Part shown: positions 477 to 63,678 of the stretch, piece after piece
Layout of the letters: each line of letters opens with the position of its first letter
Position numbering within the stretch: position 1 is the stretch's first letter
Assembly (NCBI GenBank): GCA_041666225.1
Contig: JBAYHJ010000003.1
Coordinates: 17,116 to 81,115 of the forward strand
Reading direction: 5' to 3'
Length of the DNA stretch: 64,000 bases
From: Minisyncoccota bacterium
Lineage (GTDB): Bacteria; Patescibacteriota; Minisyncoccia; Phycocordibacterales; UBA9973
Position numbers and translations under genes: made by a program
Notes under the pieces: model-generated
What the model was told of the DNA's origin: nothing
Databases searched by the model: none
The model's input: the letters and a program-made list of their open reading frames with translations, nothing else

Positions 477-548
477 GGCCTGGTAGCCAAGTGGTAAGGC
501 AGAGATCTGCAAAATCTCTATACGGCGGTTCAATTCCGCCCCAGGCCT
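477..548 (+). tRNA. tRNA-Cys (GCA)
   Basis: Cloverleaf read directly from the sequence. Acceptor GGCCTGG/CCAGGCC, D-stem GCCA/GGCA, anticodon stem GAGAT/ATCTC with loop CTGCAAA, T-arm GGCGG-TTCAATT-CCGCC. Confidence 0.85.
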
Positions 549-598
549 CAAAAATAAAAAGTAGCAATTTATATATAATTTTGCTAGTATATTTTTAT

Positions 599-680
599 GC
601 CCAGGTGGCGGAATTGGTATACGCGCTAGTCTTAGGAACTAGTGGAGCAATCCTTGGAGGTTCAAGTCCTCTCCTGGGCA
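599..680 (+). tRNA. tRNA-Leu (TAG), long variable arm
   Basis: Acceptor GCCCAGG/CCTGGGC, anticodon stem CTAGT/ACTAG with loop CTTAGGA, long variable arm, T-loop TTCAAGT. Confidence 0.85.
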
Positions 681-704
681 CAAAGAGAGACACCACATAA
701 AAAA

Positions 705-15679: not shown

Positions 15680-17083
15680 TTAATTCATTTTATCTTTTAT
15701 ATAATCTATGATTTCATCTTTTTTGACTCGCTCTTGAGTGCCTGTATCACGATCACGAATTGTCACACAATCATCAGTCAAAGTATCAAAATCTATAACG
15801 ATACACCATGGTGTCCCTATCTCATCCTGTCTTCTGTAGCGCTTACCAATGTTACCATTGTCGTCATAAGCGACCCAACCAAACTCCTTTTTTAATTCTC
15901 CAAAAATTGTTCTTGCGTAAGAAATAAGTTCCGGTTTGTTTTTTAGTAGTGGAGAGACACAAACTTTATATGGAGCGATTGATGGTGGAAACTTCAAATA
16001 AACTCTTGAGTTATCACCTTCACCATCTTCTCTATAAGCAGAGCATAACAATGCAAGAATTGCTCTGTCTACACTAATTGTCGGCTCTAAAACATGCGGA
16101 ATAAATTTTTCTCCAGTTTTATCGTCTAACATTTCCATTGATTCCCCGGAAAATTCTTGATGTCTTTTTAAATCGTAATCTCCCCTATGGGCAAGACCTG
16201 TTAATTCTTTAATTCCAAACGGATAAGCAAATTCTAAATCAACAGTTTTTTTACTATAATGAGCTCGAGCTTGCTCAGGGTGTTCAAGTGGTGAAAGTTT
16301 AGTTGAATCAACTCCAATCTTTGAGAGCCACTCTTTTTGTTCTAATAAAAAATTATCAAAAAATGCTTCCCATGGAGAACTTGGATGAATAAAATATTCA
16401 AATTCCATTATTTCAAATTCGCGTAGACGATATATAAAATCTCTTGGAGTTATTTCATTTCTGAAAGCTTTACCTTTTTGTGCAATTCCAAAAGGAACTT
16501 TTGGAGACAAAGATTGTAAAACATTTTTAAAACTAACAAACATACTCTGAGCTTCTTCTGGACGTAGATACGTCTTTACTGCTGTTTCTTCAACTGCCCC
16601 CATTTTTGTCTCAAGCATTAGGTTGAAACGACGAACATCTGAAAGTTGATTACCGTCTGGACTCTTAATTCCGAGTTCTTTTATTTTCTCACCCATTTCT
16701 TCAATTGTAAGTTTTTCAGCATTTACACCAGCATCTTCAAGTAAATGATCTGCTCTATATCTTTTCTTTGTAACTAAATCATCAACTAACGGGTCGATAA
16801 ATTCACTTGTGTGGCCTGAAGCATCCCAAACTTTTGGATGCATTAATATGGGTGTATCTATAAGATAAATATTTTCTCTACTACGAATAAAATAATCAAC
16901 CCAGGAATCTTCTATATTTTTTTTGAGCAATGATCCAAGCGGACCGTAGTCATACGTCCCTGAAAGACCTCCATAAATTTCTGATCCTGGATAGATAAAT
17001 CCACGCCTTTTACAAAGTGATATAATTTTCTCCATTAAATTGTTTTCTTGTTTTTGCATTTGATTCTGATTTAGTAAAATCAC
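15680..17083 (-). CDS. glyQS: Glycyl-tRNA synthetase (alpha2, archaeal/eukaryotic type)
   Basis: N-terminal LCKRRGFIYPGSEIYGGLSGTYDYGPLG is the GlyRS class II signature. Length 467 aa. Confidence 0.88.
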   Translation of the reverse strand: MILLNQNQMQKQENNLMEKIISLCKRRGFIYPGSEIYGGLSGTYDYGPLGSLLKKNIEDSWVDYFIRSRENIYLIDTPILMHPKVWDASGHTSEFIDPLVDDLVTKKRYRADHLLEDAGVNAEKLTIEEMGEKIKELGIKSPDGNQLSDVRRFNLMLETKMGAVEETAVKTYLRPEEAQSMFVSFKNVLQSLSPKVPFGIAQKGKAFRNEITPRDFIYRLREFEIMEFEYFIHPSSPWEAFFDNFLLEQKEWLSKIGVDSTKLSPLEHPEQARAHYSKKTVDLEFAYPFGIKELTGLAHRGDYDLKRHQEFSGESMEMLDDKTGEKFIPHVLEPTISVDRAILALLCSAYREDGEGDNSRVYLKFPPSIAPYKVCVSPLLKNKPELISYARTIFGELKKEFGWVAYDDNGNIGKRYRRQDEIGTPWCIVIDFDTLTDDCVTIRDRDTGTQERVKKDEIIDYIKDKMN

Positions 17084-17147: not shown

Positions 17148-19046
17148 TTATCTTACTACTCTCCCATTACTCGATGGTGCATTTGGATCATTTGTTAACT
17201 GAGTTGTGATAGGGCCACGAGTACTTTTAATTACAGTATTAGAAAATGTATCTGTTCCTGTTAGATAAACTTCTTTCATCAATTGAGGGAGACTTCCAAC
17301 TTGAGTCAACGACGGTTTTAGAGAAATTATAAAAGATGCCTCTCTATTCAAATTTATTCCCGTATTAGGAGACACTGATCCAATGTCCCAGATTACCTCA
17401 TGAGTTACATCATTATAAGTAACTCCTTGTATATCTCCAGTTGCTAAACCTACCCATTTTACATATATCGGCAAAGCCGCATGAGCCTCAGCCCCTGTTA
17501 TATTATTTGCAGAATTTGAAAGAGTCCAAGTAACCTTATACTTTGTTTCAGTATCTGCCTTTGGAGGAATACTTCCAGAATAGTACGAGGCAGATGTTGC
17601 TATTTGAAAATTAGATAATACTTTTACTATTTTTTCAGAAAAATTATTTATCTCATCATAAGTAGCTCCTAAAAGAGGTTCTCTTCCTTTAATACTTACT
17701 TTTATAGAAACCTGAGGATTTTTAATTGTTGATAGGCCAATAAGAGAAGTAGGTTTAAAACTAAATGAAATATTTCCTTTTTCTCCAGGATTTATTTCAG
17801 CTAAACTAGAAACAGAATTTCTGTCCCAAATAATTTGATCATTTGATGAATCATAAAAACCATTACCTGGATTAACAGTACTTTTATCAAAAACATTACC
17901 AGACAAAGTTACAATAATTTGCCCATCCGTTATGCGTGTAGATAAATTATTTGCCCAATTTATTTCTGCGTTGACTGTTCCTCCACCTACAATAGTATAC
18001 TCAGGCTGATCAAGTCCATTGACTAGAATATTTGCTTCTAAGAATGGTTTTACTATTGAAATTTTTTGCAAAATAGAACTATAGATAACATTGACAACAG
18101 ATTGATTCATACCATTTGTAGTTCCTGCATACGCATGGAACACCTGCTCTTCACCATCTTGGCCTATCAAACGTCCTTTTATTTCAACAACTACTGGATT
18201 TGTGGGAGTTAAGGCTGAAAGATCCCAAACAGAATTACCTAAAATGGGTGCGGGAATAGCACTCTCAAACATAAAATTATTTGGATATGTCACTTGGAGA
18301 ATCGAATTACTCTCTGGTAAAGAAGTATTGAGATTTGCTGTAATTTTAAAAGATATTGTTTGATTAGAAGTAACACTATTGGGAGATTCTAAATTTAAAG
18401 ATAGAGGAGCTAAACTTATTGTTACTGGATAAAATTTATCTTTAGTAAAAATAGCATTTGACCCTTCGGGATGATATTCCAAACTAACTTTAATATTTCT
18501 AATAGATTTTTCTTCTCCATATAGTTTAACTTTTACAGTCCTTATCACAACCTCGCCTGATTTGATAGTCCCAATCGAATCACGAGGAATACGTACAACG
18601 TCAGCAGTATTATCTCCTGCTCCTTTAGGATATTCAACAATGAGATTCACAAATTCAAGACTGGCATTATTTTTATTAGAAACTTCAATCTGAAGAGAAA
18701 GCTCATCTCCCCCTTTTGTAAAAGCATTACCAATAACTTGTATATCTATCTTATCACTAGAAACAGAGGAATCATTGTTATAAAATTTATAAAAAGCAAA
18801 ACCTAAAGCTGCAATAAAAAAAATAACGGAAACGAGAAAAAATTTTTTAAATATAGATACTGGTGGCTTTTTAAATTTATTATTCATACCTTCGTCTTTT
18901 TTTATTTGACTATCTTGCCAATCTAGAGATACATTATGATTCACTTGGTGCAGAATTCCCTCTCTTTGATGTCCTATAGATTTATTGTTTGGATCATAGA
19001 GGTGTATTTTTACATCTTCAATTTTATTTTTATCTTCTTCTTGCAT
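17148..19046 (-). CDS. Large membrane-anchored surface protein (hypothetical)
   Basis: 632 aa with one N-terminal TM segment and a long extracytoplasmic beta-rich region. Confidence 0.5.
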   Translation of the reverse strand: MQEEDKNKIEDVKIHLYDPNNKSIGHQREGILHQVNHNVSLDWQDSQIKKDEGMNNKFKKPPVSIFKKFFLVSVIFFIAALGFAFYKFYNNDSSVSSDKIDIQVIGNAFTKGGDELSLQIEVSNKNNASLEFVNLIVEYPKGAGDNTADVVRIPRDSIGTIKSGEVVIRTVKVKLYGEEKSIRNIKVSLEYHPEGSNAIFTKDKFYPVTISLAPLSLNLESPNSVTSNQTISFKITANLNTSLPESNSILQVTYPNNFMFESAIPAPILGNSVWDLSALTPTNPVVVEIKGRLIGQDGEEQVFHAYAGTTNGMNQSVVNVIYSSILQKISIVKPFLEANILVNGLDQPEYTIVGGGTVNAEINWANNLSTRITDGQIIVTLSGNVFDKSTVNPGNGFYDSSNDQIIWDRNSVSSLAEINPGEKGNISFSFKPTSLIGLSTIKNPQVSIKVSIKGREPLLGATYDEINNFSEKIVKVLSNFQIATSASYYSGSIPPKADTETKYKVTWTLSNSANNITGAEAHAALPIYVKWVGLATGDIQGVTYNDVTHEVIWDIGSVSPNTGINLNREASFIISLKPSLTQVGSLPQLMKEVYLTGTDTFSNTVIKSTRGPITTQLTNDPNAPSSNGRVVR

Positions 19047-19071: not shown

Positions 19072-19656
19072 TTATAATTGACTCTCGTTCAAAGCTTTAT
19101 TTATATGGGCAATTATTGACTGACGCTCCTTAAGAAGAGCTTCCGTTTTACTATGATCGAATGAAGATTCTAAATATTTTGCTAACATATCAGAGTCACC
19201 AATATAACCAAGGCTATTCATAATACGAAGAACTAAATGAAGCTCAAGTGCTTCACGAGATTTAGTTTCAATATCATCAGTATCTAATATATATAGTGCT
19301 TGTATAAAATCGTCAAAAATCTCTTCACTTGGACCTTCCCCATTACAAAGTCGCTCAAGCAAACTACTAACTCGAGTTATAAGTAGAAGTGATTGAGAAG
19401 AACTTCGAGCAAGTGGAAATGAAGTTATATGTTTAGCAGAAGTCACACGCCACAATTCTTTACCACGAACAAGATCTACATTTACATAAGAAAAATCCTG
19501 CAAAGTGAAACGGAGCTTTGATTTGTGTAAACGAACCCCCTGTGCAGCCGCATGAACCAAACCCATCTCGCGGGTATAAATCGTGAGCATTTTATTCGCT
19601 TCACCTCGATTACGAGATGAAAGTATAAATCCATGAGTGTGATAAATATGATGCAT
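19072..19656 (-). CDS. recO: DNA repair protein RecO (short form lacking the C-terminal Zn module)
   Basis: N-terminal OB-fold pattern (HGFILSSRNRGEANKMLTIYTREMGLVHAAAQGVRLHKSKL) and a helical domain. Confidence 0.6.
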   Translation of the reverse strand: MHHIYHTHGFILSSRNRGEANKMLTIYTREMGLVHAAAQGVRLHKSKLRFTLQDFSYVNVDLVRGKELWRVTSAKHITSFPLARSSSQSLLLITRVSSLLERLCNGEGPSEEIFDDFIQALYILDTDDIETKSREALELHLVLRIMNSLGYIGDSDMLAKYLESSFDHSKTEALLKERQSIIAHINKALNESQL

Positions 19657-19678: not shown

Positions 19679-20272
19679 TTACTGATTACTAATTATAATT
19701 TCTTTTAATATTTTCAAAAGTTCAGGAAACTCATACATGACTGGTTCAGCTAAAATATAGAAATGCCCTCCTTTTTCTGTTGTTATAAATTCACAATCAA
19801 GGGCTTTAGATATTTCTTCAGCTTGCCAAAACGGAACAGCTGGATCATCTTTACTATGTAAGACTACAAACTTTTCAGCTTTATTCTTTACTTTATCTAA
19901 ATCAATCTTAGGAGCCACGAAAGAATCAATTGCTCTATAAACACTTTGTTCATTTTCTGGTTCCAATGAACTTATTAAACCAGACACTAAAACAACATAG
20001 GGAATTTTCTTATTTTCATGAATAGATTCTAGATACTTTAATATTGCCGTTGCCCCTAAAGAGTGCCCCACCAAAAATATCTCCTCTTCCGGCGCATTAT
20101 CAACTGCGTGAGAAATTTCTTCTACCCATTTTGAAACAACTGGTTTTTTTGAATCAGGCATAGGCAAGACACAAGCATAAGTTTTATCTTTTGCTAATTC
20201 TTTCATTATCCAAGGTAACCACCCAGCATTAGGTATACCACCAAATCCATGTACGATAAATACTTTTTTCAT
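19679..20272 (-). CDS. Alpha/beta-hydrolase fold esterase (YdeN/RBBP9-like)
   Basis: 197 aa with GHSLGA nucleophile elbow and HGFGG N-terminal motif. Confidence 0.7.
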   Translation of the reverse strand: MKKVFIVHGFGGIPNAGWLPWIMKELAKDKTYACVLPMPDSKKPVVSKWVEEISHAVDNAPEEEIFLVGHSLGATAILKYLESIHENKKIPYVVLVSGLISSLEPENEQSVYRAIDSFVAPKIDLDKVKNKAEKFVVLHSKDDPAVPFWQAEEISKALDCEFITTEKGGHFYILAEPVMYEFPELLKILKEIIISNQ

Positions 20273-20276
20273 TCTT

Positions 20277-23200
20277 CTATTTTACCAAATTTACGATAAA
20301 TACCAAGCTATCAATTTTTATTTCTTGACCATTGTTTTCTTTAATTTTTATTTCTCTCACGTTAACTGTTTTTAAAAATTCATCCTTAAATTGATTTATC
20401 AATTCCTGACCTTCAACACTTGTTTCAATAACCAATGTGATAATATCATTTGGATTTAATCCATTCTTTTTTCTTATATCTTGTATGGCACGAACAAGCT
20501 CACGATAATTCCCTTCTTGTTTGAGTTCTTCGGTTAAATTTAGATCGAGTTCTACTTTCTTTTCATCACCCTTATCATACTTCAAATTTTTAACATTAAG
20601 TTCGTCTTTAATTATTTCTTCGTATTCAGTTGGTAATTCGTAATTCGTAATTATTAATTCTCTTAGTGGTTGCCTAACTGGAATTCCAGATTTTTGACGA
20701 GCTTGCAAGCCAAGAGAAACAATCTCTCTTGCTTTTTTCATTTCATCAATAACTTTTGTATTAATATTATCTATTGTAATATCTAAAAAGAAATCAGTCA
20801 GATGAACACTTATTGGATCAGATGAAAATCTAATTTTCTTCCAAATTTCTTCCGCAATAAAAGGCATAAAAGGTGCAAAAAGTTGAACCGTTACTTTTAA
20901 AACAAAATATAAAGTATGCTTTGCGTCTTCATTGCCATCTTTTAATCGATCACGGGAACGGCGTAAATACCAGGTTGAAAGGTCTTCAATAAATACCTCA
21001 AAAGGTTTCGTTGCTTGTGCCAAATCATATGCCTCCATACCATTTTTGACCTCAAGAACAAACTGTGATGTCCGAGCAATTATCCATTGATCGAGAACAT
21101 TTTTTGAAACTTCATATGATTGATCTTCAGTGTTTTGATTTCTATATAATTCATAGAAAGAGACAACATTATCAAACCTATTAATTATTTTACTAGATAC
21201 TTCTTGGACGAGTTTTTCAGAGAAATTTACATCTTCCCCCTTCATCAAAGTACTAGCCATCAGATAGAACCTGAGAGCGTCAACTCCGTACTTATCAAAT
21301 AAAAGCCAAGGATCTGGGAAATTATTTTTAGACTTGGACATCTTGCTTCCATCTTCTGCAAGGACTGTCCCTGTAGTTACAACATTTTCAAATGGAGCCT
21401 TCCCAAACAATATAGTAGAAATAGTGTGAGTATAGTAGAACCAAGTTCTCGTCTGGGCAATATATTCTGCTACAAATCCTGCTGGAAAATTATCTTTCTG
21501 CCAATCTGGATTCTCAAATGGATAGTGATCCTGTGCAAAAGGCATTGATCCTGACTCAAACCAACAATCTATAACTTCTGGAATTCTTTTGTATTCTTCA
21601 CCCTTTTCATCAATAAGTACTATTGAGTCAATATATGGGCGGTGCAAATCAAGCTCATAATCTTTATTATGAGGAAGAACTACAAAGTTTAATTCTCTTA
21701 TCTCGGCATTCTTCAAGTATGGAGGAAAATTTTCATCAGTAGGAAGTGTCTCGTAAGAGAAGCCTTGTACTACATGGCAAAGTGCACTAGTCTCCCCTGC
21801 ATGACCTATAAGGAGAATATTCTTACCGGAATATTGGCTATCTATTTCATAAATCATTTTCCCTACTCGATTAATAACTTGCGAATAACTCTCTCCGTTT
21901 GGCATCGCTTCAAATGGATGCTCCTTGTACTGATTACAATAAAATTCTTCGAAAGCTTCTCGCGACTTTCCTTCGTAATCCGAACTTACATCCCATTCTT
22001 TCTCAAGGTCGTTATAGATAATTTTATCCAGTGGATAGCCAATCTGCTCACAAAGAATTTTCGTAGTTTCTTTGGTTCTCTCTAAAGGAGATGCTATAAC
22101 TACGTCAACTTTCTCTTTGAAATTTTTTGCACTTTCTGTCACTTGCTCTACCCCAACTTTCGTAAGTTTACAATTATTGGATTCTTCATCTTCCATCACA
22201 ATCTCACTAACGTTGCATTCTGCTTGCCCATGACGCATGACCCAATACTTATTCCCTGACTTTTTAACTTTTGACTTTAAATCTTCAAGAGAATTCACTA
22301 CCATTATCTTACCACTTTCTGATTTCCAAATAGGAAGCGGGCTCGCCCAATAACGATTGCGGGAGATAGTCCAATCAGGAGCACTCTCCATAGTATTCTT
22401 GAAACGTCCCTCTTTTAAATGTTCAGGAATCCAATTCATATCTTCACCTTTTTTCAGTAGACTATCTTTAACTTTTTGTATATTTATAAACCAAGATGGT
22501 AGTGCATAATACAGAAGAGGTGTCTCACAACGATAACAGTGCGGATATGAGTGAATGATTTTCTCTTTTGCAAAGAGAGCTCCAGTGTGTGCCAGATATT
22601 TAATAATTAGAACATCTGTAGACTGCGGATCTTCCTTTGGTTTCACTTTTACATTTGGAAAGTCAGTTACCTCTTTTGAAAAATCTCCGTTGGGCTCCAC
22701 ATGACGAATAAATGGGATATCGTGCTCTTTTGCCAAGCCCATATCATCTTCACCAAAAGCTGGCGCTTCATGAGCAATCCCTGTCCCCTTATCTACTGTC
22801 ACAAAATCTGCATGCCAAACTTTCCAAATATTAGGATTTTTAGCTACTTCTTCATTTTTATAATATGGGAATACTGGCTCATAAGAAAGACCTACTAAAT
22901 CTTCCCCTTTTACTTCTTTTATTATTTCTCCATTATCAAATTTACTCTGTAAATTTTCATACAAATCTTTCGCTACTACATATACCTCTTCGCCTTTTTC
23001 TGTAATATTTTTTACTAAAATATAAAGCAATTCTTTATTTATAGCTATTGCAGTATCCCCTGGTAATGTCCAAGGAGTTGTAGTCCAAGCAAGTAAATAT
23101 GTATCTTTATATTTTTCATCTAAAATTTTAAATTTAACATATACAGAAATATCAGTAATATCCTTATAACTATTATCCATAGCAATTTCAGAATTTGCTA

Positions 23201-23762
23201 TTGGGGTCTCACAGCGTGGACAATAAGCAAGAACTCTTACTCCTTCGTAAAGTAATTCTTTTTTATTCATCTCACCCAATGCCCACCAGACACTTTCTAT
23301 GAAAGTGTTGTCCATAGTTTTATAAGAATTATCAAAATCCACCCAGCGACCCATACGATCTACTGTTTTCTTCCATTCATTTACATATGTTAGAACTTTA
23401 CTACGAGCATGCTCGGTAAATTTATCAATACCTAGAGCCTCAATAGCCTTCTTTCCAGAAATACCCAAATCTTTCTCTACAATATTCTCAATTGGCAATC
23501 CATGGCAATCCCAACCCCAACGACGAGGAACATTGTACCCACTCATAGTTTTGTATCTACCTATCACATCCTTTACTGTACTTCCAAGTATATGCCCATA
23601 ATGAGGAAGTCCTGATGCAAAAGGTGGCCCATCATAAAATACATACTTTCCCTTCGGTGCATCTTTCTCCAAACTCTTCTCGAAAATTTTATTTTCTTTC
23701 CAGAATTTTAAAACTTCTTCTTCTCGAAGCGCACTATTTGTTTTTTGATTTTTGTCCTCCAT
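20277..23762 (-). CDS. ileS: Isoleucyl-tRNA synthetase (type 2) carrying an inserted histidine-phosphatase (PGM-family) domain
   Basis: PPFASGLPHYGHIL motif, GWDCHGLP, WTISRNRYWASPLPIW and KMSKS. The W-to-KMSKS distance is about 330 aa against about 130 typical. The inserted residues (about 504-700) carry RHG, SPLERTKETT and GHAGE motifs. Confidence 0.9.
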   Translation of the reverse strand: MEDKNQKTNSALREEEVLKFWKENKIFEKSLEKDAPKGKYVFYDGPPFASGLPHYGHILGSTVKDVIGRYKTMSGYNVPRRWGWDCHGLPIENIVEKDLGISGKKAIEALGIDKFTEHARSKVLTYVNEWKKTVDRMGRWVDFDNSYKTMDNTFIESVWWALGEMNKKELLYEGVRVLAYCPRCETPIANSEIAMDNSYKDITDISVYVKFKILDEKYKDTYLLAWTTTPWTLPGDTAIAINKELLYILVKNITEKGEEVYVVAKDLYENLQSKFDNGEIIKEVKGEDLVGLSYEPVFPYYKNEEVAKNPNIWKVWHADFVTVDKGTGIAHEAPAFGEDDMGLAKEHDIPFIRHVEPNGDFSKEVTDFPNVKVKPKEDPQSTDVLIIKYLAHTGALFAKEKIIHSYPHCYRCETPLLYYALPSWFINIQKVKDSLLKKGEDMNWIPEHLKEGRFKNTMESAPDWTISRNRYWASPLPIWKSESGKIMVVNSLEDLKSKVKKSGNKYWVMRHGQAECNVSEIVMEDEESNNCKLTKVGVEQVTESAKNFKEKVDVVIASPLERTKETTKILCEQIGYPLDKIIYNDLEKEWDVSSDYEGKSREAFEEFYCNQYKEHPFEAMPNGESYSQVINRVGKMIYEIDSQYSGKNILLIGHAGETSALCHVVQGFSYETLPTDENFPPYLKNAEIRELNFVVLPHNKDYELDLHRPYIDSIVLIDEKGEEYKRIPEVIDCWFESGSMPFAQDHYPFENPDWQKDNFPAGFVAEYIAQTRTWFYYTHTISTILFGKAPFENVVTTGTVLAEDGSKMSKSKNNFPDPWLLFDKYGVDALRFYLMASTLMKGEDVNFSEKLVQEVSSKIINRFDNVVSFYELYRNQNTEDQSYEVSKNVLDQWIIARTSQFVLEVKNGMEAYDLAQATKPFEVFIEDLSTWYLRRSRDRLKDGNEDAKHTLYFVLKVTVQLFAPFMPFIAEEIWKKIRFSSDPISVHLTDFFLDITIDNINTKVIDEMKKAREIVSLGLQARQKSGIPVRQPLRELIITNYELPTEYEEIIKDELNVKNLKYDKGDEKKVELDLNLTEELKQEGNYRELVRAIQDIRKKNGLNPNDIITLVIETSVEGQELINQFKDEFLKTVNVREIKIKENNGQEIKIDSLVFIVNLVK

Positions 23763-24093: not shown

Positions 24094-25647
24094 TCAACAC
24101 ACTTCCTGCTGATAACATTTTTCACAATATATAATTTCTGATCGGTCTGGGGCATAACTCGTCTCAAATTCGTTAGTACAACCTTCTTTCATACAGGATC
24201 TGTACCAGAGCTTCATAGGATTAAGTTTTTTTGTTCTTGATATATGCCTACAATGAAAACATCTTCTAGGAATTGGAATATTCATCTTCTTATAAAAAGT
24301 TAGTTCACTAGCTACAATCTTATAATTTCTTCCACATTCTATGCAACCAAGTATTTCATCTAATATACTATCACCAATTTCATTTATAGAATCTGGAATA
24401 TTTTTATAAAATAGAGTTTCTTTATCTGATGTTTTCTGAATATTATCCTGCCACCCATATCCTTTTTCTATTGCTTCTTCTTTATTTAAAGGATAATTAT
24501 TTATCGCAATTGTTTCATTGTATCCAAAAGGTGAAATTTCTGAAGGAAAAAATTCACCATATTTATATATAACTCCATTTTTATCAACATATGGCATATC
24601 ATTCATGTGTTCTATAATTTTTGGTAATAATTCTTCATATTCTTTTTTTGTATATTGTTTATTTAAAATAGAATAACTATCATTACGGAGAGCATCACAC
24701 CCAAAAATATGTTTACAATTATGACAATGTTGAGTATATCTTATATCCTGACTCTTCACAGAAAATAAACCAAAAAAGTTTAATTGGGAATGATCTACAA
24801 CTTCCCCTTCATAACACTCAGAAAGTTCTCCTGACATCGTTAAATCATAAGAATCTTTCTGGATACCACCAAAATCAGAATATTTACAATTTTCACATTT
24901 CTTTAATACAAAAGATTTTTTAGTGTTTTTAGAATAAGAAATAATATCCCCTGAGCAATCTAATGTCTGTTTAAACCAAGCAAAACGACGAGGGTAATTT
25001 AAAATAAATTCACTATACTCATTTTTAGTTTTCTCTACACTAGAAAATGTATCTAGTTTATACTTTCCTAAAATCTTTTCATATTCTTCTTTTGTATACT
25101 GTTCATTTTTAAAACAATATTTTTTGTTTCGTAGACCACAACACATAAAACAATTGGAGCAATCCTTACAATCATATAAGAATTGTGAATCTATACACGC
25201 TCTACTAAATTCTGAATATTTAAGTCTATATCCATGAGTACAGTTGATGCATTCATATACAAACTCAGTTTCTGCAAAATTTAATAAACAATCTACAATT
25301 TCTTTTCCAGCATTAATAAAATAACCATACATGACATTCTCAATATGCCACCCAGAAAAAACCATATAGCAATTTTTTGAAAACCAAACATCATGAGTAT
25401 ATTCGCAATTCATGCTAGCAATACCATCATCATTTACGAGAGCCATGTGTGGAATTCTTTTCATTAAATCTTGGAATTGAATAAAGAACGGTTTACTAAA
25501 ATCATAATCAACCCCATATTTTTGGATCCCATTTATCACTCCACCAGCACTTATTACAATAAATAGTAATACCAGATTCAAATGAATATAAAGAAATAAC
25601 AGATTTATCACACAAATCGCACTTTCTTGTATAAAGAGACATAACAT
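24094..25647 (-). CDS. Cysteine-rich repeat protein with a C-terminal CxxC zinc ribbon (probably continuous with 25508-25792 after a frameshift)
   Basis: Many CxxC pairs; an internal repeat C.NC..F.C..LRN..Y..N.QYTK.EYE..L.K occurs twice; C-terminal CIECGRNYKIVASELTFYKKMNIPIPRRCFHCRH. The in-frame N-terminal 60 aa look non-genuine, so the start is probably at M62 (near 25464) or the ORF is fused to the upstream one. Confidence 0.5.
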   Translation of the reverse strand: MLCLFIQESAICVINLLFLYIHLNLVLLFIVISAGGVINGIQKYGVDYDFSKPFFIQFQDLMKRIPHMALVNDDGIASMNCEYTHDVWFSKNCYMVFSGWHIENVMYGYFINAGKEIVDCLLNFAETEFVYECINCTHGYRLKYSEFSRACIDSQFLYDCKDCSNCFMCCGLRNKKYCFKNEQYTKEEYEKILGKYKLDTFSSVEKTKNEYSEFILNYPRRFAWFKQTLDCSGDIISYSKNTKKSFVLKKCENCKYSDFGGIQKDSYDLTMSGELSECYEGEVVDHSQLNFFGLFSVKSQDIRYTQHCHNCKHIFGCDALRNDSYSILNKQYTKKEYEELLPKIIEHMNDMPYVDKNGVIYKYGEFFPSEISPFGYNETIAINNYPLNKEEAIEKGYGWQDNIQKTSDKETLFYKNIPDSINEIGDSILDEILGCIECGRNYKIVASELTFYKKMNIPIPRRCFHCRHISRTKKLNPMKLWYRSCMKEGCTNEFETSYAPDRSEIIYCEKCYQQEVC

Positions 25648-25797: not shown

Positions 25798-26316
25798 TTA
25801 AAACATTCTACTTATTTTTTCTGCAATGTCTTCTGAACTTTCTAAGTCTGTTCTAAAAGCTATAGCCTTAAGATTTTTTTCTTTATTAAAAATTTCATAA
25901 AGTTCCTTGAATCTATCAACTGATAAATTTGATATTTTTCTATCTTCCTTTGGCACTTTTAAAGCACTCTCTACTCTTTCATTAAATCTTTTTAATAAAA
26001 CTTCAAAATCTGCCTCTAAATTAATTTCAACAACCTCATAGTTCTCTTGCTTGGCTAAATCAATTAACTTTTGTCTAAATTCTCTCGTAAGAGATGAATC
26101 TGAAATAATATTATATTTCATACTAAAAGTTTCTTTAGCCACAGCCAGTACAATTTTCTGCACATCTTTATAATACTTATCTGATTTATATTTAGAAAAA
26201 GACCATTTTAAATAATCATAGGATAAATGGAATAAATTCTCATTATTTTTCATTAATATTTTAATAACAGAACTTTTTCCTGAGCAAGAACTCCCATTTA
26301 AAATTATTATTTTCAT
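25798..26316 (-). CDS. P-loop kinase (AAA_33 / chloramphenicol-phosphotransferase-like family)
   Basis: Walker A motif GSSCSGKSS at the N-terminus; 172 aa. Confidence 0.55.
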   Translation of the reverse strand: MKIIILNGSSCSGKSSVIKILMKNNENLFHLSYDYLKWSFSKYKSDKYYKDVQKIVLAVAKETFSMKYNIISDSSLTREFRQKLIDLAKQENYEVVEINLEADFEVLLKRFNERVESALKVPKEDRKISNLSVDRFKELYEIFNKEKNLKAIAFRTDLESSEDIAEKISRMF

Positions 26317-26615: not shown

Positions 26616-28355
26616 CTACATCCTATCTGGTACCTCTATACCCAATAGCCAGAGACCGTTCTTCATAGTTTGTACAAATGCTTTTATAAGATTCAAATGA
26701 TAAGCCATATATTTGTTTTCATCCACAAGTATCTGAGTATTGCCATAGAAAGTATTAAAGCTACTTGCAAGTTCAGTGAGATAAGTTGCAATATGATGAG
26801 GCTCAAGCAAACTGTATGAACGCTCAACTACTTCAGGAAATTGATAAAGTAATTTTTCTAAATCTATAATATTTTCTGGAATCTCCCCATTGTCCAAGCC
26901 TTGCCTGGACATCTGAGATTTTGCAAGAATAGAATTTGCTCGAACAGCAGTGTATTGTAGATAAGGACCAGAGTCACCATCAAAAGAAATTGATTTCTCG
27001 AAATCATAAACAATATCACTACCAAGTGATGAGCGAAGAATAGAATATTTAAGTGCTGCTACTCCAACAATTTGAGATATTCTCTTTTTCTCTTCATTTG
27101 AAAGTTCTCGGTCTTTTACTTTCTCAAAAACAATATCCATTGAGTCTCGCAAAAGTGACTCACCCGTTATAACATTACCTTTTCGAGAAGACATTTTACC
27201 TGTGGACAGTCTCATCATCCCATGGGTAATATGCTTCATTCTACTTTCTAGATCTGGATGCATTAGGGAAATCGCTTTCTGAACAACTTTCATATATTCA
27301 GCTTGCTCTATTGCTGTCGTGACAATAGAAATATCAGGATTTTCTTTTTCAAACTTGGTAGTTGTTAGACCTATTTCTTTCGTTTCATAAGTAGGCAAGC
27401 CCTGAGAATTTATAAAAACACGAGTGTGAAGTTTCTTATCATAGTTCTCACCATGGAAAATAATTGCTCTATCTGATTCTTCAAATATTTTCCCAACATT
27501 CTCTCTTACAATTTTCTCTCCAATTGGAGCCATGACACTTTCGAAGAAGTAATAATCAAATTTTGTTCCTAAAAGTTTATATATTTCTTCAAATGCTTCA
27601 AGTGTAGCTTTTCTTCCCCAATCATAATATTCTTTTATTTTTTCATCACATTCACCACTTTTATTTATATAATTATAAATTTGTTTATTAATACTTTCTA
27701 TCTCTTTTTTTGCCTCATCATTTATCTCATATTCATTATTACCTTGTGCATAACTATCACCAATAGCTAATGAAAGAGCCAAATAAGATAATCCATTATC
27801 AGTAGTAGGATATCCTAATTTAATCAAATGATATATAGCCTTTGCAACATGAGGACCTACATCCCCTTGATAATTTGCTCGAATAGTTTTTGCCCCAGAG
27901 AATTCTACAATTCTAGAAACTGACTCACCTATGGCGTTAGCCATTAAGTGACCGATATGGAAAGGCTTGAAAGGATTCGGATCCGTGTACTCCACCATAA
28001 CTTTTTTCCCTTCAAGTATTTTATTCTTTCCCCACTTGTCTCCTTTATCTAAAATTTCACTTACACTCTCTGTGAAAAATTCTCGTGACAAATAAAAATT
28101 AATAAATCCAGCTCCTGCAGTCTCTATCTTTTCAATATCACCGAAGCCTTGCTTCGGTAAACCTTTTAATTCTAAGGCCATTTTTTCTGCTAATTCACGA
28201 GGGTTTGTTTTTTGTTGTTTTGCACAAACCATTGCCACATTTGTAGAATAATCTCCATTTTTAAAATCTTCAGGATGTTCAACGGAAAAAGAAACATCTT
28301 CTATTCCAAGATTTTTTAAAGCTTCATTTATTAATTTTTCTATTTGTTCTTTCAT
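26616..28355 (-). CDS. argS: Arginyl-tRNA synthetase
   Basis: N-terminal ArgRS add-on domain, HIGHLMANAIGESVSRI motif and a DALR-type anticodon-binding C-terminus. Confidence 0.9.
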   Translation of the reverse strand: MKEQIEKLINEALKNLGIEDVSFSVEHPEDFKNGDYSTNVAMVCAKQQKTNPRELAEKMALELKGLPKQGFGDIEKIETAGAGFINFYLSREFFTESVSEILDKGDKWGKNKILEGKKVMVEYTDPNPFKPFHIGHLMANAIGESVSRIVEFSGAKTIRANYQGDVGPHVAKAIYHLIKLGYPTTDNGLSYLALSLAIGDSYAQGNNEYEINDEAKKEIESINKQIYNYINKSGECDEKIKEYYDWGRKATLEAFEEIYKLLGTKFDYYFFESVMAPIGEKIVRENVGKIFEESDRAIIFHGENYDKKLHTRVFINSQGLPTYETKEIGLTTTKFEKENPDISIVTTAIEQAEYMKVVQKAISLMHPDLESRMKHITHGMMRLSTGKMSSRKGNVITGESLLRDSMDIVFEKVKDRELSNEEKKRISQIVGVAALKYSILRSSLGSDIVYDFEKSISFDGDSGPYLQYTAVRANSILAKSQMSRQGLDNGEIPENIIDLEKLLYQFPEVVERSYSLLEPHHIATYLTELASSFNTFYGNTQILVDENKYMAYHLNLIKAFVQTMKNGLWLLGIEVPDRM

Positions 28356-63499: not shown

Positions 63500-63570
63500 A
63501 TATATCTTATTTTCAAAGCTACGGGACTAGGACTCGAACCTAGATACACAGTTCCAGAAACTGTGGTCCT
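63500..63570 (-). tRNA. tRNA-Gln (CTG)
   Basis: Minus-strand cloverleaf. Acceptor TACGGGA/TCCCGTA, D-arm GTCT-AATGGTA-GGAC, anticodon stem ACAGT/ACTGT with loop TTCTGGA, T-arm CTAGG-TTCGAGT-CCTAG. Confidence 0.8.
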
Positions 63571-63678
63571 ACCATTAGACGATCCCGTAATATCAACCTC
63601 AACTTCAATATATTACCATAAAATGCTAAAAAATACAGATTTGAAAACAATGGATTTTTAAGGTACAATAACCCTTAT

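Follow-up and report, generated by a model that had tools for sequence, protein, structure and literature searches.

A histidine-phosphatase domain nested in the isoleucyl-tRNA synthetase of Patescibacteria and its free-standing orthologue upstream of ileS

How does a phosphatase come to sit inside an essential aminoacyl-tRNA synthetase (aaRS), and what could it do there? The question is raised by ileS, the gene for isoleucyl-tRNA synthetase (IleRS), in a stretch of 64,000 nucleotides (the window) from a Minisyncoccota bacterium (contig JBAYHJ010000003.1). A first reading of these letters without database searches, here called the sequence-only reading, had noticed an apparent histidine phosphatase within the synthetase and had considered, among other origins, a domain capture. 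We followed this up by profile, structure and locus comparisons, and found that the insert corresponds to a separate gene that sister lineages carry directly upstream of ileS.

A histidine-phosphatase domain within IleRS

The phosphatase and a linker that returns into CP3, a part of the synthetase's catalytic body, are laid out as follows:

21687..22253, minus strand: inserted branch-1 histidine phosphatase, residues 504-692 (189 residues, 'NKYWVMRHG' to 'IRELN')
22227..22235, minus strand: RHG by direct translation, with R510, H511 (predicted phospho-accepting nucleophile) and G512
22077..22091, minus strand: SPLER (558-562) by direct translation, with S558 and R562 (phosphate-binding arginine)
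21996..21998, minus strand: E589, predicted general acid/base
21801..21806, minus strand: G653-H654, second catalytic histidine
21651..21686, minus strand: return linker FVVLPHNKDYEL, residues 693-704, 12 conserved residues leading back into CP3

The Pfam profile His_Phos_1 (PF00300, gathering cut-off 21.7 bits) matched residues 507-674 of the whole protein with 87.0 bits (E 1.7e-24) and the excised segment with 92.1 bits (E 4.8e-26), which bears out the earlier claim of an inserted histidine phosphatase with intact signatures. The location of the extra residues had also been given correctly. Their number, put at about 200, has to be corrected: relatives that lack the insert have IleRS of 926-931 residues, so the excess is about 230. 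The interval first delimited, 21663-22253, corresponds to residues 504-700, of which the phosphatase proper takes up residues 504-692 and the 12-residue linker follows.

R510, H511, S558, R562, E589, R632 and H654 were invariant in 120 of 120 close homologues, and G512 was retained in 119. Across these 120 proteins, mean identity to the query residue was 41% in the insert, versus 78% in the N-terminal and 67% in the C-terminal part of IleRS. Its rate of evolution is about double that of the IleRS core. Among 146 diverse domains the catalytic R-H-R-E-H set was complete in 131, while the 15 with an incomplete set were mostly truncated, six having E replaced by D and two another substitution. The equivalents of S558 and R562 were invariant in all 146, and the position of E589 held E in 139, D in six and V in one. 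That conservation is confined to the catalytic residues, on a scaffold that otherwise changes fast, speaks for a working enzyme, and the embedded phosphatase is apparently active, as far as sequence can show. At this level the activity considered likely in the sequence-only reading is supported by the invariance of R510, H511, R562, E589 and H654.

The insert also has the alpha/beta fold of the superfamily. In the full-length model its blocks reached predicted local distance difference test (pLDDT) values of 86-95, and modelled alone it gave a predicted template modelling score (pTM) of 0.82. The return linker was modelled with pLDDT 88-89, and its residues F693, P697, H698, N699, Y702 and L704 are at least 90% conserved. 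Sequence and model together show the whole of a histidine-phosphatase domain, its fold confidently predicted and its catalytic set full.

By fold and profile it resembles small-molecule phosphatases (phosphoserine phosphatase, PhoE, CobC). A sequence search with a profile of its free-standing relatives returned PhoE (1.4e-22), PSP1 (2.4e-21) and CobC (4e-20), the same ranking as by structure, and protein phosphatases of the superfamily ranked lower in the structural comparison (SixA 14.8, tau55 14.5, PGAM5 13.4, Sts-2 13.0). PSP1 (4IJ5), PhoE (1H2E), glucosyl-3-phosphoglycerate phosphatase (6S2Q), the alpha-ribazole phosphatase CobC (6E4B/6NRU) and the riboflavin-pathway HFP (9MMH) are 19-23% identical to the insert. 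To our knowledge, the known small-molecule branch-1 histidine phosphatases are free-standing or fused end to end, and none is linked to an aaRS.

The insert reached none of the curated NCBIfam phosphatase subfamily cut-offs. For phosphoglycerate mutase proper (dPGM), scores were 45.7-50.1 bits versus 225 with NF038349 (archaeal dPGM), 28.5-33.3 versus 316 with PRK01295 and 21.7 versus 81.7 with TIGR01258; for CobC they were 57.6-62.7 versus 162.9 (TIGR03162) and 51.9-56.7 versus 250 (PRK15004). The metal-independent phosphoserine phosphatase family (PspA/PSP1) gave 32-36 versus 350 with PspA, and the match to the equivalog profile of SixA, a short cap-less form of ~155 residues, stayed below its cut-off. 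We assign the insert to branch 1 of the histidine phosphatase superfamily, in no curated subfamily; as far as these profiles tell, it is not a phosphoglycerate mutase. The earlier label 'phosphoglycerate-mutase family' is thus correct for the superfamily but not for dPGM proper, whose models score far below cut-off.

The architecture recurs in independent assemblies

An unusual ORF (open reading frame) of this kind could be an artefact, through misassembly or as a chimeric ORF, or could contain a selfish element, either an intein or an insertion carried by a transposon. We searched a collection of 5.8 billion proteins for homologues of the whole protein and examined the 120 best matches (62-100% identical). 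Both PF00133 and PF00300 were present in all 120, which came from many independent NCBI, JGI, ENA and Logan assemblies under the names Paceibacterota, Nomurabacteria, Parcubacteria and Patescibacteria. Their segment from PIW to DLHR measured 216-232 residues throughout, and the alignment of relatives proposed in the sequence-only reading places the insert at the same position in every one; it is lineage-wide. In total, at least 191 distinct full-length proteins from independent assemblies share the architecture. Misassembly, which that reading had named as one of two ways in which its claim could fail, does not account for such a distribution.

Signs of mobility were also sought. The base composition of the insert does not differ from that of the rest of ileS, and Pfam found neither a Hint/intein nor a transposase domain in the IleRS of the window. 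The junctions are not intein-like: the insert begins N-K-Y, and the 'HN' at its C-terminal junction precedes K and is Y/F/H-N in relatives. Beside the insert there are no direct or inverted DNA repeats beyond chance-size matches, and PADLOC, which detects defence systems, reported nothing for the insert and only marginal matches for the free-standing protein. One metagenomic IleRS (P0226) does hold an in-frame REP-associated tyrosine transposase domain, which shows that IleRS genes of this group do suffer insertions. For the phosphatase, the recurrence of the architecture, the uniform composition, the absence of intein, transposase or repeat signatures and the form of the junctions refute an artefact or selfish element for practical purposes.

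The host enzyme and the insertion point

The features of the host gene, with domain names assigned by alignment to 6LDK/1ILE and from PMC7191050 and PMC7955072, are:

20277..23762, minus strand: ileS, ORF of 1161 aa; type-2 (eukaryote-like) isoleucyl-tRNA synthetase with the phosphatase embedded
22254..23762, minus strand: IleRS residues 1-503, comprising the first Rossmann half, CP core, CP1 editing domain, CP2, CP2-3 linker and CP3 beta-hairpin
23592-23603, minus strand: HYGH (residues 54-57), HIGH-type motif in the first Rossmann half
23061-23084, minus strand: TTTPWTLP in the CP1 editing domain, by direct translation
22743-22787, minus strand: GTGIAHEAPAFGEDD in the CP1 editing domain, a motif of the GTG.AH.AP..G..D type
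22347-22373, minus strand: WTISRNRYW (residues 464-472) in the CP2-3 linker, by direct translation
20277..21650, minus strand: IleRS residues 705-1161 and stop, comprising the remainder of CP3, second Rossmann half, anticodon-binding domain and DUF5915 C-terminal domain
21627-21650, minus strand: DLHRPYID in CP3, by direct translation
21330-21344, minus strand: KMSKS (residues 807-811), by direct translation

Direct translation thus placed the 1161-residue ORF and all the canonical motifs quoted earlier, GWDCHGLP among them, where they are expected. The NCBIfam equivalog profile for IleRS (TIGR00392, cut-off 621.4) scored 857.9 bits, its match split in two by the insert, and Pfam recognised tRNA-synt_1, Anticodon_1 and DUF5915 (PF19302). 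Among 76 homologues H54, G56, H57, K807, M808, K810 and S811 were invariant, S809 was at least 90% conserved, and the key residues of the CP1 editing motifs WTTTPWTLPG and GTGIAHEAPAFGEDD were invariant as well; which CP1 residues matter for editing is established from E. coli and T. thermophilus IleRS.

The full-length AF2 model (mean pLDDT 80) matched Priestia megaterium IleRS2 (8c8w) at E 5e-76 in Foldseek. IleRS2 and yeast IleRS were found at E 1e-64 to 5e-76, type-1 IleRS only at ~1e-46, and TM-scores to solved type-2 IleRS were 0.78-0.86, yeast IleRS reaching up to 0.86. By profile and model, the enzyme is a type-2 IleRS with a DUF5915-type C-terminal domain in place of the bacterial Zn-binding domain. 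It is the same enzyme as the type-2 IleRS (the mupirocin-insensitive type) of P. megaterium (IleRS2, 8C8U-8C9D), T. thermophilus (1ILE) and yeast/Candida (7D5C, 8WND, 6LDK), with which it shares the HIGH, KMSKS and CP1 editing motifs and the anticodon-binding and DUF5915 domains; the yeast CP2-3 linker WNVSRNRYWG resembles WTISRNRYW. The fused gene is the only ileS copy in the window. Judged by its motifs, it is the housekeeping type-2 IleRS of a bacterium of the Patescibacteria (candidate phyla radiation, CPR), with synthetic and editing motifs intact; in the NCBI taxonomy, 'Candidatus Paceibacterota' now stands under the phylum Minisyncoccota, which covers CPR/Patescibacteria.

Where solved and described IleRS have only a short loop between the CP3 hairpin and the CP3 helices, the window has 189 residues and a 12-residue linker. 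Structure alignment maps the insertion between residues 482/488 of T. thermophilus IleRS, 496/501 of C. albicans IleRS and 467/479 of P. megaterium IleRS2. CP3 comprises residues 473-534 in Ca IleRS (PMC7191050) and 459-526 in Sc IleRS (PMC7955072). The whole ~190-residue phosphatase replaces a short CP3 surface loop (~5 unaligned residues in solved IleRS). The junctions are clean and stereotyped: insert-less CP3 segments measure 39-48 residues and inserted ones 221-265, and a return linker 'LP(Y/F/H)N...ELD(L/F)HRP' is present in 33 inserted loci.

CP3 is the most structurally variable part of the catalytic body, and its topology differs among Ca, Tt and Sa IleRS (PMC7191050). The CP2-3 linker, just before CP3, lines the pocket for tRNA A76 and reveromycin (PMC7955072). 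In the yeast IleRS-tRNA complex a contact between CP3 and tRNA was not reported, and in human IARS1 CP3 is exposed and docks LARS1. A site used for protein docking could also suit a module without catalysis, which would bind a phosphorylated metabolite as an allosteric sensor or act as a spacer or docking surface on IleRS, and the surface of the insert does evolve fast. However, hundreds of sequences, and all the extra copies that were checked, keep the catalytic histidine, both arginines, the glutamate and the second histidine without change, a pattern that indicates turnover and not just binding. We regard a non-catalytic module as very improbable.

A free-standing orthologue encoded upstream of ileS

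A search with the insert alone against 1.84 billion cluster representatives gave 311 matches below 1e-10. The 150 best of these were classified as 75 full IleRS fusions, 35 fusion fragments and 40 phosphatase-only matches, about a dozen of the latter being complete proteins of ~190 residues. For one free-standing phosphatase, P0225, over 300 relatives were found in Patescibacteria. The genes of P0225 and P0284 stand 3 bp after argS and 1-8 bp before an insert-less ileS (product 926-931 aa), which recO follows.

Free-standing and inserted proteins align end to end ('GNKYWVMRHG' of the window with 'MKLNNKYYILRHG', and 'AEIRELN' with the C-terminal 'GELRELN'), so that a whole gene's worth of protein is nested in CP3. 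They are 60-65% identical at best, and the IleRS cores are similarly related, which makes free and inserted domains orthologues. These alignments show the insert to be the orthologue of a ~189-aa free-standing phosphatase encoded upstream of ileS in sister lineages. The earlier suggestion of a domain capture thereby gains a definite source, namely the gene that otherwise stands immediately upstream of ileS.

We then surveyed loci by scanning one genome per GTDB species with the free-standing alignment. The 80 closest loci were kept and, together with four earlier ones, annotated with custom hidden Markov models (HMMs); titles of the records include Staskawicz-, Portnoy-, Nealson-, Nomura-, Wildermuth-, Campbell- and Terrybacteria and others. 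In 39 of the 84 loci the phosphatase is a separate gene directly upstream of a co-directional ileS. The HMM envelopes of the two genes lie within -36 to +68 nt of each other in 30 of these 39, and argS ends 0-11 nt upstream of the phosphatase in most. In 44 loci the phosphatase lies inside ileS, between the N- and C-terminal IleRS parts, and a single exception (L045) has ileS nearby but on the other strand. Thus, 79 of the 80 GTDB-species loci have either the upstream gene or the insert, and none of the 84 loci holds both.

Bootstrapped neighbour-joining trees built from the IleRS core required 4-8 state changes (mode 6), versus ~22 with shuffled tip states. The free-standing and inserted states are therefore shown to be mutually exclusive and to have been interchanged several times (~4-8). 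The neighbour-joining tree of 140 phosphatase domains is star-like and gives no direction for insertion versus excision. Despite gaps of a few bases, a read-through fusion of the phosphatase to the IleRS N-terminus was found in none of the 39 separate-gene loci and none of 389 proteins.

Duplicated ileS genes were seen at two loci. One GTDB genome carries two tandem copies, each with a phosphatase insert (L061, 5106-8612 and 8661-11567), and another locus has ileS fragments on the opposite strand beside an intact ileS (L060, 42-3380, minus strand). Such duplications could be raw material for conversions between upstream gene and insert.

Extra copies, further insertion sites and charge

In some IleRS the number of His_Phos_1 domains rises to between two and four. 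Five insertion sites, placed by explicit pairwise coordinates and given in query numbering, were distinguished overall:

~430/439: in CP2
503/700: in CP3, the site used in the window
715/724: in CP3
744/755: in the second Rossmann half
874/886: at the start of the anticodon-binding domain

The R-H-R-E-H set was kept in every near-complete copy checked of these multi-copy IleRS. One form (P0223), seen on six contigs of up to 1.06 Mb, has copies at 744/755 and 874/886 and none at 503/700, and the site-B copies of P0235 and P0244 are related in the 140-domain tree. His_Phos_1 matches an IleRS fragment on a 3.9-kb ENA contig (P0157, 1161 aa) in four stretches, of which three stand in tandem at the CP3 site and one lies in CP2. 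The three that are near-complete and were analysed retain the catalytic residues; the fourth is truncated (~75 residues). Three P0157 copies cluster in the domain tree, which points to intragenic duplication.

P0226 (1066 aa, on an 11.3-kb contig of a JGI metagenome) combines several insertions. Its transposase domain occupies residues ~326-472 in the editing-domain region (NF047646, 81.3 bits versus 80), with host residues ~265-301 duplicated on either side. In addition, the CP3 site holds a histidine phosphatase and site 744/755 a GNAT acetyltransferase, after which the ORF ends. An analogy with GNAT self-immunity (aminoacyl-nucleotide detoxification of the MccE/RimL type) was left aside: the domain matches Acetyltransf_10, _1, _7 and _4, and Acetyltransf_3, to which we take RimL and MccE to belong, is not among the matches.

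In many lineages the phosphatase, free or inserted, has a net charge of +10 to +27 per ~190 aa, with maxima of +35 (free) and +27 (inserted) in L005-L084; IleRS and ArgRS at the same loci have +1 to +4 per 100 aa. The insert of the window's own clade is acidic (net about -6, pI 5.5). A first comparison had set basic free forms (pI 9.8, +17) against acidic inserted ones (pI 5.5, -6), but on the GTDB set the contrast had nearly gone (+15.5 versus +11, p = 0.02). Charge follows lineage rather than form, and we dropped it as an argument about recruitment.

The positions and the charge of the copies bear on the idea of a macromolecular repair site, which would remove a blocking phosphate from the 3' end of tRNA-Ile or reverse an inhibitory phosphorylation of IleRS. 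The block on tRNA-Ile would arise from phosphorylation or pyrophosphorylation by a toxin or from nuclease damage, and the inserted and free-standing versions would act in cis and in trans. Toxins that pyrophosphorylate tRNA 3' ends or phosphorylate aaRS exist, and HipA-type kinases target other aaRS. Four of the five sites, all but that at the anticodon-binding domain, are grouped around the catalytic cleft in CP2, CP3 and the second Rossmann half, and a 1:1 stoichiometry with fixed docking geometry would matter for a macromolecular substrate, not for a diffusible one. The unusually basic domain of many lineages would fit, as would an insertion point that comes after the linker lining the A76 pocket (PMC7955072), and the relation of inserted to free-standing forms mirrors that of ProRS INS to YbaK/ProXp-ala (PMC3973320). 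Yet the insert of the window's own clade is acidic, CP3 has no reported tRNA contact in the yeast complex, and generic damage to tRNA ends would leave the association with IleRS alone unexplained. Moreover, we know of no histidine phosphatase that acts on RNA ends. All in all, we find such a repair site improbable.

Comparison with other fused and nested enzymes

The best NCBIfam match of the insert is NF005567 (64-67 bits, below the cut-off of 326), which describes mycobacterial RnhC (Rv2228c/MSMEG_4305), an RNase HI-CobC protein whose phosphatase part is a CobC-like acid phosphatase. There, too, a histidine phosphatase is joined to an enzyme of nucleic-acid metabolism. RnhC differs in several respects: its two parts are joined end to end by a highly variable linker, it is limited to Actinomycetales, and experiments found its domains to be functionally independent, with activities separable in vivo (PMC7466739; 10.1101/2022.11.09.515703). 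In contrast, the phosphatase described here is nested in the catalytic body of its host, has conserved junctions, exists alternatively as an adjacent gene and is amplified in some lineages.

In its organisation the system is closer to the INS domain of ProRS and YbaK/ProXp-ala, where a domain is nested in the catalytic domain of an aaRS, free-standing homologues occur elsewhere, and the free-standing form is typically found where the ProRS INS is absent (PMC3973320). INS and YbaK are aminoacyl-tRNA deacylases of another fold and chemistry, so the analogy implies no deacylase or editing activity for the phosphatase. NF040702 (isoleucine--tRNA ligase with an N-acetyltransferase domain) is a curated IleRS with an extra enzymatic domain, as a category a precedent; P0226 has both a GNAT domain and the phosphatase. 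The IleRS of the window scored 333.1 bits against this profile (cut-off 1999) and has no acetyltransferase Pfam match.

The mycobacterial case lends some credit to the view that the insert is an independent metabolic phosphatase, acting on a sugar-phosphate, a phospho-amino acid or a salvage nucleotide, with chemistry unrelated to aminoacylation. It would be an operon neighbour that became fixed in a permissive loop, either giving co-expression in a reduced genome or by drift. The neighbours by fold and profile are all small-metabolite phosphatases, the locus is rich in hydrolases and kinases of nucleotide metabolism (tmk, dut, NUDIX, HAD, HD), CP3 is variable and exposed, and sequence change in the insert runs at about twice the pace seen in the IleRS core. 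But the same view needs 4-8 switches in an essential gene, and two to four copies at five sites, without selective benefit. Nor does it sit well with the strict exclusion of the two forms and the linkage of this phosphatase clade to ileS in 83 of 84 loci, with conserved junctions where the mycobacterial linker is highly variable, or with an easy read-through fusion that is never seen while the difficult internal insertion recurs. We consider an independent phosphatase possible but doubtful.

Gene neighbourhood

The window shares an argS-ileS-recO backbone with loci that hold the free-standing phosphatase:

26616..28355, minus strand: argS (ArgRS, 579 aa), identified by Pfam; conserved upstream neighbour (synteny in L001-L084)
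19072..19656, minus strand: recO (RecO_N); downstream of ileS in most related loci

Between argS and ileS lies a 517-aa Cys-rich ORF without a Pfam match (24094-25647, minus strand; 30 Cys, 9 CxxC). It occupies the slot of the free-standing phosphatase gene of other lineages, and two relatives of the window's clade have a homologue there as well (L085, 6869-8605, E 5e-124; L086, 7212-8960, E 5e-72). Between argS and this ORF, a 172-aa P-loop kinase-like ORF is encoded (25798-26316, minus strand; Zeta_toxin, AAA_33 and KTI12, E ~1e-10). It was rejected as a counterpart of the phosphatase: it is absent from all 87 related loci examined, and its PADLOC matches are marginal.

The slot between the fused ileS and recO holds variable small genes, mostly hydrolases: a Ser_hydrolase in the window (19679-20272, minus strand), NUDIX, HAD and Ser_hydrolase in L085 (12650-14305), and HD and PNPOx_N in L087 (12496-13579). 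A conserved tmk-dut(-NUDIX) block of nucleotide metabolism lies upstream of argS. Between recO and a class II aaRS (15680-17083), a 632-aa ORF without a Pfam match (17148-19046, minus strand) appears, from position and size, to be part of a conserved synteny block: relatives encode a product of 610-643 aa there, with a faint CLIPPER match in three of four. The tRNA genes of the window are Cys-GCA (477-549, plus strand), Leu-TAG (599-681, plus strand) and Gln-CTG (63518-63589, minus strand); no tRNA-Ile gene was found in the 64 kb.

Discussion

What, then, might the phosphatase do? The reading we favour, with about even confidence, is that it serves IleRS as a dedicated partner whose ligand is connected with aminoacylation, and that it acts in trans if encoded upstream and in cis if inserted. 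It would remove phosphate from a ligand tied to the aminoacylation reaction, which we think is most likely a nucleotide-like small molecule and less likely the acceptor end of tRNA-Ile. By established histidine-phosphatase chemistry, H511 would attack the phosphomonoester to form a phospho-histidine intermediate while R510, R562 and H654 hold the phosphate; E589 would protonate the leaving group, and water would then free the phosphate. Coupling to IleRS is proposed because of the near-exclusive linkage to ileS (83 of 84 loci), the complementary distribution of the two forms, the recurrent nesting in an essential enzyme with conserved junctions, the gains in copy number and the lack of any end-to-end fusion. 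These arguments are evolutionary in kind.

Several points weigh against a dedicated partner. The activity of the phosphatase is a prediction from its residues, and nothing in the model, with a whole-chain pTM of only 0.65, places its active site facing the synthetic site. Ordinary small metabolites with no tie to translation are the substrates of all its closest structural relatives. Conserved operon adjacency is possible without a functional link, and CP3, variable and solvent-exposed, may simply be a permissive insertion site. The best-documented CobC-like fusion precedent, RnhC/MSMEG_4305, has functionally independent domains (PMC7466739; 10.1101/2022.11.09.515703). The set of 80 loci, made up of the nearest relatives of a single phosphatase clade, is not an unbiased sample, and the trees are neighbour-joining only. 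Finally, nothing explains why IleRS alone should need a phosphatase.

A bolder version, which we hold to be rather unlikely, would make the phosphatase a third catalytic site of the aaRS, serving repair or immunity. It would unblock the tRNA-Ile acceptor end, IleRS itself or a phosphorylated active-site ligand, with cis and trans forms interchangeable as in editing domains, and the two to four copies of some IleRS would reflect an arms race with a toxin or inhibitor.

In the literature searched we found no paper on a histidine phosphatase in or next to IleRS, in agreement with the earlier impression that a phosphatase module in an aaRS was undescribed. Histidine phosphatases are absent from a recent survey of domain insertions, which does name aaRS among the hosts. 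The fused proteins themselves are already public, labelled only 'class I tRNA ligase family protein' or 'isoleucyl-tRNA synthetase'. Neither component family is new, and the nested arrangement is an aaRS with an accessory domain. Much of the work of aaRS other than tRNA charging, for example editing and signalling, is set by accessory domains; the literature searched has no account of a bacterial housekeeping aaRS whose catalytic body encloses a second hydrolytic enzyme of an unrelated kind.

Nor is the pairing a one-off. It extends over a large part of the Patescibacteria, as adjacent gene or insert, with repeated switching and amplification, and exclusive forms, switching and amplification are the pattern expected of two proteins working together. 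Both components can be expressed recombinantly, which makes the question directly testable, and in hosts with minimal genomes every retained domain is informative. If the activity proves unrelated to aminoacylation, the locus would still be a clean natural case of a neighbouring gene becoming a nested domain and leaving again, useful for understanding and engineering domain insertion. If the substrate of the phosphatase is tied to aminoacylation, the arrangement would add to translation a step of a new kind, for quality control, repair or immunity.

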